Positions 2,623 through 34,045 of a stretch of DNA of 64,000 nucleotides are shown one piece after another (the first letter of the stretch is position 1; each line of letters starts with the position of its first letter). This stretch comes from Parcubacteria group bacterium (GTDB taxonomy: Bacteria; Patescibacteriota; Minisyncoccia; Moranbacterales; UBA11712). The DNA lies in contig JBAZXV010000004.1 of assembly GCA_041659685.1 (NCBI GenBank), positions 70,355 to 134,354 of the forward strand, given 5' to 3'. The position numbers were made by a program, and so were the translations under genes. The notes under the pieces were generated by a model. That model was not told the origin of the DNA and did not search any database. It was given only the letters and a program-made list of their open reading frames with translations.

Positions 2623-3114
2623 TTGAAATTTCGAAAAAAAATGGGAATTTTTGATAAGATAATCGGAAAAAAAGAAGAAGAGAAAGCGGTTGAAAAGCCG
2701 AAGAAGGCTGTTGCGGACAAGCCTGCGAAAGTTAAGGAAGAGAAGAAGGAAAAGCCGGTTCAGAAAAAAACGCCGGAAAAACCGAAGGCAGTCAAACCGT
2801 CAGGAAAGAAAAAAGTAAAAAAAGAGGATAACTTCGCCCACGAAATTATTTTAGAGCAAATCATTTCGGAGAAATCAACGGCGCTTGGCGTTCAGAACAA
2901 ATATGTTTTTAGGGTTAGAAAAGACGCCGGCAAGCACCAGATTAAGGAAGCGATTGAAGGATATTATGCCGTAACAGTAGTCGGGGTAAACACGATTAAA
3001 ATCAGCCCCAAAAAGAGAATTGTCGGCAGAACGATCGGATATAAGAAGGGATTCAAGAAAGCGATAATAACTCTTCAAGCGGGCGATACGATCGCGGCGG
3101 CGGAAGGGGTTTAA
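2623..3114 (+). CDS. rplW: 50S ribosomal protein L23 with a ~70-aa lysine/glutamate-rich N-terminal extension
   Basis: The C-terminal 95 aa are canonical L23 (…YVFRVRKDAGKHQIKEAIEGYYAVTVVGVNTI…). The N-terminus is KEKP-rich low complexity. Confidence 0.9.
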   Translation: MKFRKKMGIFDKIIGKKEEEKAVEKPKKAVADKPAKVKEEKKEKPVQKKTPEKPKAVKPSGKKKVKKEDNFAHEIILEQIISEKSTALGVQNKYVFRVRKDAGKHQIKEAIEGYYAVTVVGVNTIKISPKKRIVGRTIGYKKGFKKAIITLQAGDTIAAAEGV

Positions 3115-3174
3115 TAACAAATAACATAAGCGTAAGAAAATTGTCGCTCTGCGGCAACAATTATCGATAATAAT

Positions 3175-3996
3175 ATGCCAGTTAAGATATATAAAAAAAC
3201 TACTCCCGGACGCAGGCAGATGTCGGTCAATAAGCTGGAAGAAAAATTCGGAAAACCGGAGAAAAGTTTGACATATTTCATAAAGAGAGATAAAGGCCGC
3301 TCGGGCGGAAAAATTTCAGTTCGCCACAAGGGAGGCGGTCACAAGCGCCTGTATAGAGAGATTGATTTCAAGATGGATAAAATCGGCGTTCCGGCTGTTG
3401 TCGACAGAATTGAAAGGGATCCCAACCGCAGTGCCTGGATTGCGCTTATCAAATATGCCGATGGAGAGAAAAGATATATTATCGCCACCGAAGGACTGGT
3501 TGCGGGAAAAAAGATTCTGACAAGCGAAAAGGCTGATATTCAAAGAGGAAATCGGGCAATACTGAGGAATATTCCAGTTGGAACCCAAGTTTCCATGGTT
3601 GAAATGTCTCCTGGAAAAGGCGCCCAGCTTGCGAGAAGCGCGGGAACATCGGTGACAATCATGTCTCTTGAGGCAAATAAAGTTCAACTCAAGCTTTCAT
3701 CCGGTGAAATAAGATTGGCAAGCGGAAATTGTTGGGCCACAATCGGACAGGTGAGTAATTATCTCCATAATACAGTAATGATAGGGAAAGCCGGGCGGTC
3801 TCGCTGGCTTGGAATCAGGCCTACGGTTCGAGGGTCAGCCATGAATCCCGTTGATCATCCGCACGGAGGAGGAGAAGGCAGGCAGGGAATCGGTCTTAAG
3901 CATCCGAAAACTCCGTGGGGGAAGCCGGCTCTTGGCAAAAAGACCAGAAAAAAGTATAAGTATAGCAATAAGTTTATTCTCAAGAGAAGAAAGTAG
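3175..3996 (+). CDS. rplB: 50S ribosomal protein L2
   Basis: L2 signature (…GRSGGKISVRHKGGGHKRLYR…HPHGGGEGR…). Confidence 0.96.
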   Translation: MPVKIYKKTTPGRRQMSVNKLEEKFGKPEKSLTYFIKRDKGRSGGKISVRHKGGGHKRLYREIDFKMDKIGVPAVVDRIERDPNRSAWIALIKYADGEKRYIIATEGLVAGKKILTSEKADIQRGNRAILRNIPVGTQVSMVEMSPGKGAQLARSAGTSVTIMSLEANKVQLKLSSGEIRLASGNCWATIGQVSNYLHNTVMIGKAGRSRWLGIRPTVRGSAMNPVDHPHGGGEGRQGIGLKHPKTPWGKPALGKKTRKKYKYSNKFILKRRK

Positions 3997-30501: not shown

Positions 30502-30618
30502 CCTTTTTGTTGATTAGCATTATGAACGATTGCTTGTTGTCAGTCAAACTTTGATTTTTCAATGATTACGTAATTATTGACAAATTAGTAAAAATCATAT
30601 ACTATTATTTTGTTTTAC

Positions 30619-30692
30619 AGCGGGGTAGAGCAGTCCGGTAGCTCGGGTGGCTCATAACCACCAGGTCGTGGGTTCAAATCCCACCCCCGCAA
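30619..30692 (+). tRNA. tRNA-Met (anticodon CAT) with an unpaired A1·A72
   Basis: Cloverleaf: acceptor GCGGGG/CCCCGC, U8, D-stem GAGC/GCTC, anticodon loop CTCATAA, T-loop TTCAAAT, discriminator A; no encoded CCA. Confidence 0.8.
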
Positions 30693-30797
30693 CAAGCGTC
30701 CGCAAATAATAACGAAGCACGAAAGTGCTAATGTTTTTATTTGATATAATTTAGAACCTCCTATACAATACTAAGCGAAAACATAACGGAGTGCTCT

Positions 30798-30908
30798 ATG
30801 GCTAAATCAAAAAAGAGAATAGAGGCGCGCAATCTAAGGAAAAAAGGCTTAAGTATAAGAGAAATTGCTGAAAAAATTGAAGTGTCCAAAAGCTCGGTAA
30901 GTATTTAG
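30798..30908 (+). CDS. Helix-turn-helix DNA-binding ORF (36 aa), ended by a TAG that is in frame with the downstream 171-aa ORF
   Basis: MAKSKKRIEARNLRKKGLSIREIAEKIEVSKSSVSI*. A TGATATAAT -10 element and a GGAG SD lie upstream. Confidence 0.4.
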   Translation: MAKSKKRIEARNLRKKGLSIREIAEKIEVSKSSVSI

Positions 30909-30959
30909 TGCGCAGATATTGAGTTAACGAAAGGACAGGCCGAAAAGCTTCACGAACAA

Positions 30960-31475
30960 ATGGTCAAGGGCGGATATTTGGGACGGCTCAAGGGCGCGCG
31001 TATTCAAAAAGAAAATAAGCGACGGAAGATAAGGTATTTTTCCGAAAGGGGAAAACGCGATATTAAGCAGATAAAAAAACGAGAGTTATTTATCGCCGGA
31101 CTCGCTTTATACTGGGGTGAAGGAAGTAAAAAAGATCCGAGAGTAAGGTTTTATAACTCCGATCCGGAGATTGTCAGGTTCATAATGAAATGGTTCAGAA
31201 ATATTTTGAATGTTGCGGAAGATAGATTTATAATGTATGTCACAATAAACAGGATTCACAATGATAGGCTGGATGATGTGAATAAATACTGGTCTGAAAA
31301 AACCAACATATCGATCGGGCAATTCAGAAAACCTATTCTCATAAAAGCAAAAAATGAAAAGATTTACGATAATCATTTTCAACACTACGGAACTCTGTGC
31401 GTAAGGATTGCAAAAAGTTCAAGTTTATTCTATCAAATCATGGGTTGGCTGGAGGCTCTTGGCAAAACGAAGTAA
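30960..31475 (+). CDS. Putative LAGLIDADG-type homing-endonuclease-like protein (single-motif, 171 aa)
   Basis: …ELFIAGLALYWGEGSKKDPRVRFYNSDPEIVRFIMKWF… resembles the LAGLIDADG helix plus β-hairpin/helix core, and the size matches I-CreI-like enzymes. It is in the same frame as the upstream HTH ORF. Confidence 0.4.
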   Translation: MVKGGYLGRLKGARIQKENKRRKIRYFSERGKRDIKQIKKRELFIAGLALYWGEGSKKDPRVRFYNSDPEIVRFIMKWFRNILNVAEDRFIMYVTINRIHNDRLDDVNKYWSEKTNISIGQFRKPILIKAKNEKIYDNHFQHYGTLCVRIAKSSSLFYQIMGWLEALGKTK

Positions 31476-31482
31476 AAATTTT

Positions 31483-31556
31483 GGCAGGGTAGCTCAGCCG
31501 GTTAGAGCGCGGGTATCATAAACCTGAGGTCGCGAGTTCGAGTCTCGCCCCTGCTA
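31483..31556 (+). tRNA. tRNA with anticodon CAT (second CAU tRNA: Ile2/lysidine-type or Met)
   Basis: Acceptor GGCAGGG/CCCTGCT (G1·U72), D-stem GCTC/GAGC, anticodon loop ATCATAA, T-loop TTCGAGT, discriminator A. Confidence 0.75.
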
Positions 31557-31581
31557 CAAATACAAAAATTGAAGAATGTGA

Positions 31582-31595
31582 GGCGTAGCTCAGTT
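31582..31595 (+). repeat. 14-nt duplicate of the tRNA-Asp 5' end (acceptor and D-arm fragment)
   Basis: GGCGTAGCTCAGTT is identical to nt 4-17 of the tRNA-Asp that starts 51 nt downstream; the sequences then diverge. Confidence 0.6.
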
Positions 31596-31645: not shown

Positions 31646-31719
31646 GGGGGCGTAGCTCAGTTGGTTAGAGCGTCTGCCTGTCACGCAGAAGGTCGCCGGT
31701 TCGAGCCCGGTCGTCCCCG
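31646..31719 (+). tRNA. tRNA-Asp (anticodon GTC)
   Basis: Acceptor GGGGGCG/CGTCCCC, D-stem GCTC/GAGC, anticodon loop CTGTCAC, T-loop TTCGAGC, discriminator G. Confidence 0.85.
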
Positions 31720-31860
31720 CATCATTTTTGAGGCTTATTTATGGCCTCTTTTTTGATAGAGATAAGGAACTACGGACATTGTCTTTACAAAACGTCAGTG
31801 TCCTGCTAATTTTCCAGTATTCTTAAATACAAGGGTCAGCAGACCAAAGGGAGGAAAACT

Positions 31861-32367
31861 TTGCCAGTACTTACAAGTGAAATCCAAGGCGAACGGAAAA
31901 GGCTGAAGAAAAAGATCCAGCGTCAACGTCCTCAAAGTGACTTGCGCTGGTTCCATGGAGTTCTCCATGACTTTGGTCCTCGGAGAAGCGTGGGATCCGG
32001 TACTATCCACGGCTTCGGCACTTTGAGAGTTAGGACGAACCTTACCGAACCCCAGCCTCTTCCGGGTGTCAAGATGCTGCCGAAAGACGGAGGCACGACA
32101 CGTTTTTTCAGTGAGGTTAATCCGCCCAGATTCCACTATCCGCCGGCGGAGGAATTCCGCTCACGCGCCGCTTTTGTGATCAGGCAACCGGTGAAGATTC
32201 CAGTCAGTATCAGGTATGCCGACCTTCCACGGGCATTTGATCTTGATGGTGAGTGCTTTGATTGCCATCATTATCCCAACTACGCGCAGGAGCGCAATAC
32301 TATCGATCGCGGCCGCATGCAAGTCATCATTTGCAGCGCTTGCGGCAAGGCCCAGAGGCCTCGTTAA
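31861..32367 (+). CDS. Hypothetical GC-rich ORF with a C-terminal CxxC…CxxC zinc-ribbon-like motif
   Basis: 168-aa ORF of ~55% GC immediately 3' of tRNA-Asp (…CFDCHHYPNY…ICSACGKAQ…). Whether it is coding is uncertain. Confidence 0.3.
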   Translation: MPVLTSEIQGERKRLKKKIQRQRPQSDLRWFHGVLHDFGPRRSVGSGTIHGFGTLRVRTNLTEPQPLPGVKMLPKDGGTTRFFSEVNPPRFHYPPAEEFRSRAAFVIRQPVKIPVSIRYADLPRAFDLDGECFDCHHYPNYAQERNTIDRGRMQVIICSACGKAQRPR

Positions 32368-33046: not shown

Positions 33047-34045
33047 ATGAATCTCTCAAAAATTGAGGAAATTTTCAAAAATGAGCCGGCTTTTCGCCTC
33101 GCGCAAGCGCGCAAGGCGGTTTTTCATGATTTGATTAAAGACTGGAACGAGGCGACGACGCTTTCGAAAAATATCCGTGAAAAACTGCAAAAAGTTGCGC
33201 CTCTCGAAATCAAAGGCGAAATGTTTTCTTCAAAAGACGGCCGCACGGTGAAGGCGGCGATGAAACTCGAAGACGGACTCACCGTTGAAACGGTGCTCAT
33301 GAAACACACCGGCAAGCGCAATACGATTTGCGTTTCTTCGCAGGTTGGCTGTCCGTTGGGATGTTTGTTTTGTGTGACGGGTTCCATGGGATTCAAAAGA
33401 AATCTCACCGCATCCGAAATTCTCGATCAGGTACTGTTTTTTGCGCGAAAACTAAAAAATACTGATGAGAAGATAACCAACATCGTTTTCATGGGCATGG
33501 GCGAGCCCTTTCTCAATTGGGAAAACGTGAAAAAAGCCGTTGAAATTCTGAATGATCCGAATTCCTTCGGCATCGGAGCGCGAAAAATTTCTGTTTCAAC
33601 GGCCGGCATCACAGAGGGTATTGAAAAATTGGCCGAGGAATTTCCGCAAAGCAATTTGGCCATTTCGCTCCATGCGCCGGATGATTTGCTCCGCTCGGAG
33701 ATCATGCCGGTGAACAAAAAATATCCGCTTCAAAAAATATTCAAGGCAGTGGATGAGTATATCGCCAAAACCAACCGCAAAGTCATGTTTGAATATGTCA
33801 TGCTGAGTGGCGTGAATGATTCCGAAAAGCAGGCCGAAGAACTGGCGAAATTACTAAAAAAACCTTTATATATGCTTAATCTCATTGCCTATAACCCGAA
33901 TGGAAAATTTGAATCGTCCTCGCCCGAGAAAATCCTGAAATTCAAAAATATTTTGGAAAAAGCCGGAATTTTCACCACTCAAAGATACCGCTTCGGGACG
34001 GACATTGAAGCGGCTTGCGGGCAGTTGGCCCACAGAAAGAGATAG
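33047..34045 (+). CDS. rlmN: 23S rRNA (A2503-C2) / tRNA methyltransferase RlmN (radical SAM)
   Basis: CVSSQVGCPLGCLFCVTG (CxxxCxxC) and RlmN-family context (…GMGEPFLNWENV…, …C-terminal …EAACGQL). Confidence 0.85.
   Translation: MNLSKIEEIFKNEPAFRLAQARKAVFHDLIKDWNEATTLSKNIREKLQKVAPLEIKGEMFSSKDGRTVKAAMKLEDGLTVETVLMKHTGKRNTICVSSQVGCPLGCLFCVTGSMGFKRNLTASEILDQVLFFARKLKNTDEKITNIVFMGMGEPFLNWENVKKAVEILNDPNSFGIGARKISVSTAGITEGIEKLAEEFPQSNLAISLHAPDDLLRSEIMPVNKKYPLQKIFKAVDEYIAKTNRKVMFEYVMLSGVNDSEKQAEELAKLLKKPLYMLNLIAYNPNGKFESSSPEKILKFKNILEKAGIFTTQRYRFGTDIEAACGQLAHRKR

Follow-up and report, generated by a model that had tools for sequence, protein, structure and literature searches.

A tRNA-linked helix-turn-helix and LAGLIDADG-like gene with one in-frame TAG in a Parcubacteria group bacterium

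A reading frame broken by one stop codon

The DNA analysed here (the window) is a stretch of 64,000 nucleotides from a Parcubacteria group bacterium (assembly GCA_041659685.1, contig JBAZXV010000004.1, positions 70,355 to 134,354 of the forward strand). Between two genes for tRNAs with a CAU anticodon it carries a gene whose product has a helix-turn-helix (HTH) and a LAGLIDADG-like part, and whose reading frame is broken by one stop codon. The frame runs on the plus strand, like all window features given below, from ATG at 30798 through 36 sense codons (MAKSKKRIEARNLRKKGLSIREIAEKIEVSKSSVSI; 30798-30905), which specify a three-helix DNA-binding domain according to the reading frame, Pfam and an AlphaFold2 model. 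It then meets a TAG at 30906-30908 and remains open until a TAA at 31473-31475; this second part (codons 38 to 225 plus TAA, 30909-31475) comprises a long helix (about residues 45-88) and a LAGLIDADG-like alpha/beta domain (94-225). With Trp (W) placed at the TAG, the full frame yields a protein of 225 amino acids, and the 171-residue open reading frame (ORF) downstream of the TAG begins with ATG 30960, the codon for Met55 of that protein. An earlier note on this DNA had described the HTH ORF and the 171-residue ORF as lying in one frame and split by a single TAG, as coordinates and frame bear out. In the databases the 171-residue ORF appears as a hypothetical protein from a metagenome-assembled genome of the Parcubacteria group (MAG; P0004), and the exact window sequence is present in that one assembly only, on one contig.

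We searched the databases with the W-restored 225-residue product and obtained 321 proteins with an expect value (E) of 0.001 or less. Among the best 120 of these 321, nearly all are about 225 residues long and covered end to end (100%), with E down to 1e-121, and the named sources are mostly MAGs of Moranbacteria, Parcubacteria and Patescibacteria. Since the 225-residue frame aligns end to end with more than 300 database proteins, the two ORFs are one gene and their adjacency is not due to chance. In the family alignments, of 24 and 109 sequences, Trp stands opposite the TAG in 109/109 homologues and a stop at codon 37 occurs in 0/109. At this position, the end of the third HTH helix, ATT TAG TGC of the window corresponds to ATT TGG TGT in its two closest relatives, which are 84% and 83% identical. 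All remaining invariant or nearly invariant residues of both alignments are kept in the window copy, and Nei-Gojobori ratios of nonsynonymous to synonymous substitution (dN/dS) are 0.057-0.112 for pairs that include the window, not above those of pairs of intact genes. Purifying selection acts on the family, more than 90% of whose copies are intact; the exceptions are the window, the frameshifted L069 and a few truncated copies.

The window locus is one gene carrying a single G-to-A nonsense change, TGG to TAG, at the invariant Trp37. Because there is no other decay in the window copy, this change is very recent relative to the divergence of the family, unless it is a variant within the population or an error of the consensus sequence. 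The earlier note had offered three options, namely a recently inactivated homing endonuclease, two separately translated modules and a rare programmed read-through. The first, worded as a homing-endonuclease-like gene, proved the best, with a stop at an invariant Trp in an otherwise undecayed gene, and homologous loci, which the note had suggested checking for an intact fused ORF, consistently hold a single fused ORF and not two genes. In itself the TAG is nothing unusual, being a newly arisen nonsense mutation.

Read-through or suppression would restore the full-length protein, and two points speak for it: the downstream frame is perfectly preserved, and trace expression suffices for a homing endonuclease. 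We nevertheless consider it extremely unlikely. The absence of a stop at that codon from all 109 homologues leaves programmed read-through unsupported, and no conserved read-through context was seen. ARAGORN gives only tRNA-Met, tRNA-Met and tRNA-Asp in the window, with no suppressor tRNA among them. Further, TAG is an ordinary stop in this genome, since it closes 19 (26%) of the 73 non-overlapping window ORFs of at least 120 amino acids, the others ending in TAA (41) or TGA (13); rlmN (33047-34045), for instance, terminates with TAG at the length predicted by its homologue. The earlier note was therefore right that TAG is a genuine stop elsewhere and that wholesale recoding is unlikely.

The two-module option would have the locus make a 36-residue HTH peptide and, from Met55, a 171-residue nuclease or dimerisation domain devoid of the HTH, the short form working alone or as an inhibitor. 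Met55 is indeed nearly invariant in close relatives, and gene callers often pick it as the start even in intact genes, but ATG 30960 has no Shine-Dalgarno-like sequence within 15 nucleotides upstream, the 36-residue fragment breaks off before the third HTH helix is complete and is without W37, and the homologues are fused. We judge this option very unlikely. One database entry beginning at Met55, that of L213 (256-933), was examined and proved to be a start-calling artefact, since the locus holds an intact 225-residue ORF; the idea that such entries are independent N-terminal truncations was rejected on this ground. Because of this artefact, database entries of about 170 residues need not be truncations and, with gene callers often mis-starting the family at Met55, they are not to be read as such. 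Public calls of this kind are L213, P0144, P0215, P0233, P0236, P0240, P0242, P0243 and P0259.

A different account holds that the gene is intact in the organism and that the TAG is a consensus error or a minority allele from metagenome assembly. The TAG is only one base away from the expected TGG, no further signs of decay accompany it, and the exact sequence is known from one assembly only. Against this, consensus-level substitution errors are rare in short-read assemblies, and the depositor's annotation took the stop as real and called the 171-residue ORF. We give this account a small chance.

Domains of the encoded protein

The HTH assignment made in the earlier note was confirmed by Pfam HTH_23/HTH_38, matched by 107 of 109 family members (best E = 2e-8); the window protein alone reaches E = 4e-4, under the Pfam cut-off. 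The AlphaFold2 model of the closest intact homologue (mean predicted local distance difference test, pLDDT, 91.7) has helices at residues 2-15, 20-27 and 31-37, which make up a three-helix HTH, then a single 44-residue helix (45-88) and an alpha/beta domain (94-226). The C-terminal 137 residues of the window protein were modelled with a pLDDT of 92.8 and a predicted template modelling score (pTM) of 0.86. PHROGs and NCBIfam gave matches at the level of the HTH only.

The likeness of the C-terminal domain to LAGLIDADG enzymes centres on the motif FIAGLALYWGEGS (31092-31127), within which GLxLYWGEG is invariant or nearly so family-wide. Alignment of hidden Markov models (HMM), hhalign and the invariant columns delimit it as GLALYWGEGSK, residues 101-111 (31098-31130). 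In the HMM alignment, GLaLYWGEGsK falls on the second motif of I-DmoI, GLYVAEGDK, with E108 opposite E117 and K111 opposite K120, the very residues changed in the E117A and K120M structures among the Foldseek matches. E108 and G109 are invariant in sets of 109 and 77 sequences and K111 is more than 90% conserved, in sequences down to 30% identity. The likeness to I-DmoI extends to the arrangement of the region, a helix ending in G-E-G and then a beta hairpin and a helix, with the Lys three residues on from the acidic residue. When the PDB was searched with a sequence profile of the C-terminal region, I-DmoI was the sole match (E = 7e-4; 0.012 with a broader profile of 77 sequences). The broad profile aligned by hhalign with the I-DmoI C-terminal domain at E = 7e-5 and a probability of 62% over 54 columns, Foldseek ranks I-DmoI chains with a probability of 0.96-0.99, and the PADLOC 'HEase' (homing endonuclease) model gives E = 0.011.

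Other results weigh against a homing-endonuclease domain. Foldseek E values are only 0.03-0.15, with 0.06-0.15 for the I-DmoI chains, and template modelling (TM) scores 0.3-0.42, and unrelated alpha/beta folds reach similar E. In the model, an additional helix and strand between beta3 and beta4 depart from the alpha-beta-beta-alpha-beta-beta-alpha core. The window protein and 10 distant members match neither Pfam LAGLIDADG_1/2/3 nor WhiA at E <= 10, and no Pfam LAGLIDADG or WhiA family is among the 25 most frequent of the 138 families matched by the 109 close members. Comparison by hhalign of the family profile with I-CreI gave no match. Nor did a database search that used the C-terminal fragment of I-DmoI as query return any. 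The LAGLIDADG-like label of the earlier note thus stands as far as the weak profile similarity to I-DmoI goes and fails to find a Pfam LAGLIDADG model behind it, and the assignment, drawn from sequence and model, is consistent but weak, a distant likeness.

The C-terminal domain is probably a divergent single-motif LAGLIDADG-type nuclease domain that, by analogy with I-CreI and I-ShaI, would work as a homodimer. I-ShaI is a single-domain LAGLIDADG protein of rRNA insertions in the candidate phyla radiation (CPR), and the family shares with these enzymes the presence of one domain per chain, which there implies a homodimer (PMC11270868). It differs from LAGLIDADG enzymes in having an N-terminal HTH and a 44-residue helix before the domain, and an extra helix and strand in the model; its gene, moreover, is not encoded in an intron or intein and is tied to tRNA rather than rRNA. 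That the protein is a nuclease is an inference, as are its homing and its presumed target.

An HTH fused to a single LAGLIDADG domain, which the earlier note considered an unusual architecture, is real, but far from being peculiar to this locus it is the norm of a large family. When 1.84 billion cluster representatives (50% identity) were searched with a profile, 585 clusters scored E <= 1e-30 and 3,584 scored E <= 1e-10. A scan of GTDB species genomes yielded 470 loci, on contigs with names of the Patescibacteria type or from evidently mislabelled MAGs, and three relatives were found on IMG/VR contigs. Members are labelled in the databases as hypothetical proteins or HTH transcriptional regulators. 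The family comprises hundreds to thousands of 50%-identity clusters and has a nuclease-like domain that no Pfam model recognises.

tRNA neighbours, introns and expression signals

The earlier note overlooked the most informative feature of the locus, its tRNA context. Upstream of the gene lies an initiator-type tRNA(CAU), tRNA-fMet (30619-30693), with the 5' sequence AGCGGGG and an A1/A72 mismatch; it was called by ARAGORN and is 100% identical in L001, and all close relatives have such a tRNA on the upstream side of the gene. Downstream, starting 7 nucleotides past the gene stop, ARAGORN found an elongator-type tRNA(CAU), for Met or Ile2 (31483-31557), which is the partner on this side in most of the family. 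It is followed by tRNA-Asp(GUC) (31646-31720), the third member of a conserved fMet / tRNA(CAU) / Asp cluster. The order fMet / gene / tRNA(CAU) / Asp is repeated in relatives of 48-84% identity, with unrelated flanking protein genes. A location of the gene inside an intron was considered and rejected, as both flanking tRNAs are complete and the window has no Rfam intron. In L212, the second-nearest relative, the expected tRNA-fMet (about 40-110) looks interrupted, its T-arm being split off by an extra GC-rich hairpin.

We counted tRNA linkage in 86 fetched loci. A same-strand tRNA starts between -77 and +80 nucleotides from the gene stop in 68 of the 86; the ORF extends into the tRNA in 37 of these 68 and ends exactly on the tRNA's U8-A9-G10 (GTAGCTCAG) in 25. 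Distant members (30-37% identity) precede tRNA-Lys(CUU), Gln(UUG), Ile(UAU), Phe(GAA), Arg(UCU) and Asp, and the loci L039 and L072 hold two paralogues each, every copy immediately 5' of a tRNA. The phage-like contigs L207 and L208 (IMG/VR contigs of 497 and 372 kb, huge and of high GC content) carry a 229-residue member at 3001-3690 in a tRNA array of the order tRNA-Asn x2, gene, tRNA-Glu x2, in which the 3' end of the gene overlaps an opposite-strand tRNA-Glu. We found no description of a regular tie between the gene family and tRNA genes in the literature searched. As a separate observation, the family member of L065 lies directly upstream of a tRNA-Asp.

The 18 of the 86 loci that have no downstream tRNA mostly contain a group I intron on the opposite strand about 100 nucleotides upstream of the gene (Rfam RF00028, above the gathering score). 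This intron is ORF-less and sits in tRNA-fMet at position 33/34, as established by ARAGORN with introns allowed and by inspection of the exons. The 5' end of that tRNA-fMet is mostly 78-120 nucleotides from the ATG of the gene, the outliers being L061 (246 nucleotides) and L077 (apparent overlap). Eight further loci with a downstream tRNA(CAU) also have a divergent, intron-bearing tRNA-fMet. Counting by Rfam, the gene occurs with an intron-containing tRNA-fMet in 18 loci, and in about 29 when ARAGORN intron calls are added. ORF-less introns lie on the minus strand at about 2090-2440 in L028, L030, L031, L033-L035, L047, L051, L052, L054-L056, L059, L063, L073, L076 and L077, and at 134-383 in L061. 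The window tRNA-fMet (30619-30693) has no intron according to ARAGORN and Rfam. The adjacency of gene and intron in these relatives suggests a free-standing endonuclease partner for the ORF-less introns of tRNA-fMet.

The gene also appears to have expression signals of its own. As context, a near-consensus sigma-70-like promoter, TTGACA-17-TACTAT, precedes tRNA-fMet (30577-30605), and a short terminator-like hairpin with a T-run follows it (30716-30738), conserved in L001 and L007. A second promoter-like site, TTGATA-17-TACAAT (30741-30769), belongs to the gene itself, and the same layout of -35, 17-nucleotide spacer and -10 is found before most family members. Overlapping this site is a hairpin before the start codon (30754-30796), deduced from pairing and covariation in an alignment of 34 sequences. 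Its 5' arm, GAACCTCC (30754-30761), lies within the promoter spacer, and its 3' arm, GGAGTGCTC (30788-30796), over the ribosome-binding region; GAACCnnnn in the spacer is complementary to nnnnGGTTC immediately before the ATG. In the 34 sequences, 75% of the cells of the 12-pair helix are paired, compared with 37-49% when partners are slid, and the covariation score is 0.287 against 0.10-0.15 in controls; the observed value was reached in 0/500 shuffles. The frequent G-U pairs in the helix indicate an RNA on the coding strand. RNAalifold found no consensus structure in the upstream region, the hairpin resting on the named structure and the controls. Its fold energy is -6.1 kcal/mol in the window as opposed to -13 to -17 in relatives; we do not count the weaker window hairpin as decay because the weakness is partly common to the nearest relatives, L210 and L212.

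The 5' arm is located before the -10 box. Only RNA that reads through from further upstream, such as from the promoter of tRNA-fMet, can therefore fold into the hairpin, and the ribosome-binding region would be hidden on it. Promoters placed inside a hairpin that sequesters the ribosome-binding site are known for I-TevI, I-TevII, I-TevIII and segB of T4 and for mobE of Aeh1 (PMC2988022). At the other end, no terminator was found between the gene and tRNA(CAU), and a sequence search located a terminator-like hairpin with a T-run that closes the unit after tRNA-Asp (31730-31757). The gene is thus probably co-transcribed with the tRNA, as the 5' leader of a tRNA(CAU)-tRNA(Asp) precursor. In loci whose stop is part of the tRNA, cutting by RNase P would produce an mRNA that lacks a stop codon. 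The promoter and terminator-like hairpin on either side of tRNA-fMet may mean that the three tRNAs belong to two transcription units, linked by read-through.

The spacer between tRNA(CAU) and tRNA-Asp measures 88 nucleotides in the window and 21 in L001. It contains an exact 14-nucleotide copy of positions 3-16 of tRNA-Asp (GGCGTAGCTCAGTT; 31582-31595), which matches 31648-31661 and lies 66 nucleotides upstream of the real tRNA-Asp; the copy may be the scar of a rearrangement or of a lost insert.

Mobile insert or resident gene

The tRNA cluster also exists without the gene. We scanned metagenomes for the 3' end of tRNA-fMet followed within 61 nucleotides by the 5' end of tRNA(CAU) and found at least 120 DNA stretches, in which ARAGORN confirmed at least 94 empty fMet-tRNA(CAU) sites with spacers of 0-61 nucleotides and one outlier of 115. 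Many of the empty sites continue into tRNA-Asp and several share the A1-type initiator of the window. Because at least 94 empty sites exist, the gene segment of about 790 bp is a presence/absence feature of a conserved tRNA cluster. Protein genes that flank the family differ from locus to locus, and the GC content of the gene is 34-41%, the window's being 43%. The linkage to tRNA and the presence or absence of the insert are both direct observations.

Many initiator tRNAs of Patescibacteria have the anticodon loop CCCAUAA, with C33 and not the near-universal U33; such tRNAs were seen in L020, L019, L022, L025, L040, L018 and in 27/92 distinct empty loci (L087-L206). In tRNAs of this type base 1 is A, U or C opposite A72, and they are equally frequent with and without the gene. 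The idea that the C33 variant marks occupied loci, a prediction of target-site immunity, was rejected, the counts being 5/23 for occupied and 27/92 for empty loci.

We regard it as reasonably likely that the window holds a recently inactivated copy or allele of a family of free-standing, LAGLIDADG-like and homing-endonuclease-like genes of tRNA operons. In this proposal the gene sits in the spacer between fMet and tRNA(CAU), brings its own promoter and ends at or inside the downstream tRNA, and after the G-to-A change at Trp37 the window copy no longer yields the full-length HTH-nuclease protein. Support comes from the nuclease-like domain, the linkage to tRNA, the insert-like distribution and, in relatives, from group I introns in an adjacent tRNA-fMet, from members in tRNA arrays of phage-like contigs and from the hairpin with its internal promoter.

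Beyond the domain comparisons already given, several findings argue the other way. Among the matches listed there is no closely related pair of an occupied and an empty locus, and the empty loci among those matches share only the tRNAs, save for a weak rlmN match in L190 (65% DNA and 57% protein identity). Within the clade of the window the gene diverges like rlmN (74% versus 79% identity to L001), the type of arrangement tracks protein similarity, and the large share of intact copies is unusual for a purely selfish element. Since the gene and rlmN diverge in step, long vertical inheritance under purifying selection is equally compatible with the data. Finally, loci of the window type have a tRNA-fMet free of introns and would thus be liable to cut themselves.

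The main rival is a host regulator domesticated on a LAGLIDADG scaffold, whose HTH would bind the promoter region of the fMet/tRNA(CAU) operon, the window then being a loss-of-function allele. Such a protein has a precedent in WhiA (DUF199), a regulator domesticated from a LAGLIDADG scaffold, which has two degenerate LAGLIDADG domains and a C-terminal HTH and is not known to keep the catalytic residues. Like WhiA, the family joins an HTH to a fold of the LAGLIDADG type, is encoded in bacterial chromosomes and is subject to purifying selection; it differs in having one domain and an N-terminal HTH, in keeping the Glu and the Lys, and in matching no WhiA model of Pfam. Its arrangements are classic for local regulators, the gene being first in its unit or divergent from the tRNA with about 100 nucleotides between them. 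Strong purifying selection (dN/dS 0.06-0.11), more than 90% intact copies in a stable position, divergence akin to that of the housekeeping neighbour and the database labels as HTH transcriptional regulators all fit a regulator as well. We still hold a domesticated regulator to be rather unlikely. The Glu and Lys that match E117 and K120 of I-DmoI are invariant or nearly so, at least 94 like tRNA clusters do without the gene, paralogues stand before many different tRNAs and on phage-like contigs, and the inverted repeat of the promoter covaries with G-U pairs, which indicates an RNA hairpin and not a fixed operator.

In function, SegB of phage T4 is the nearest analogue of a homing-endonuclease-like gene in tRNA operons: its free-standing gene, with a promoter inside a hairpin that sequesters the ribosome-binding site, is flanked by tRNA-Arg and tRNA-Ile, and it targets the region between the tRNA genes (PMC2988022). 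The gene of the family is likewise free-standing in a tRNA cluster and has a promoter of its own in such a hairpin. SegB is, however, a phage GIY-YIG protein, whereas the family is LAGLIDADG-like, chromosomal in Patescibacteria, and abuts or overlaps the 5' end of a tRNA. For the loci with introns the nearest analogue is collaborative homing, in which a free-standing endonuclease gene lies beside a gene with an endonuclease-less group I intron, as in cyanophage psbA/F-CphI and in mobE of Aeh1. The term itself occurs in PMC2988022. In the family, about 29 relatives have the gene about 80-120 nucleotides from a tRNA-fMet with an ORF-less intron at 33/34, a likeness from which the window departs in that its tRNA-fMet has no intron.

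More speculatively, the family could be an undescribed class of free-standing homing endonucleases specialised on the tRNA operons of Patescibacteria and of some huge phages. Its members would insert as the 5' leader of a tRNA precursor and be made harmless by RNase P, a third 'safe harbour' beside introns and inteins. They would often borrow the U8-A9-G10 of the tRNA as a stop, and in many lineages would mobilise the ORF-less tRNA-fMet intron by collaborative homing. We consider this wider proposal possible rather than likely. A survey that examined only intron interiors held that tRNA introns of Patescibacteria are largely immobile for want of endonuclease genes (PMC13011429), and the proposal, if true, would overturn that view. 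If the family is an active endonuclease, it would explain the variation in presence and absence within the tRNA-fMet / tRNA(CAU) / tRNA-Asp cluster of Patescibacteria and be a candidate driver of the spread of group I introns in tRNA-fMet, and its compact architecture of an HTH and a single LAGLIDADG domain would join the site-specific nucleases. More noteworthy than the TAG itself is that the family is tightly linked, in a way previously unremarked, to tRNA genes and to the group I intron in tRNA-fMet.

Downstream of the tRNA cluster, an island of 55% GC (31900-32350; window mean 43%) lies between tRNA-Asp and rlmN. It has no Rfam match even at E <= 1 and holds only an unconvincing TTG-initiated ORF of 168 residues (31861-32367); L001 has a DUF3850 gene there instead.

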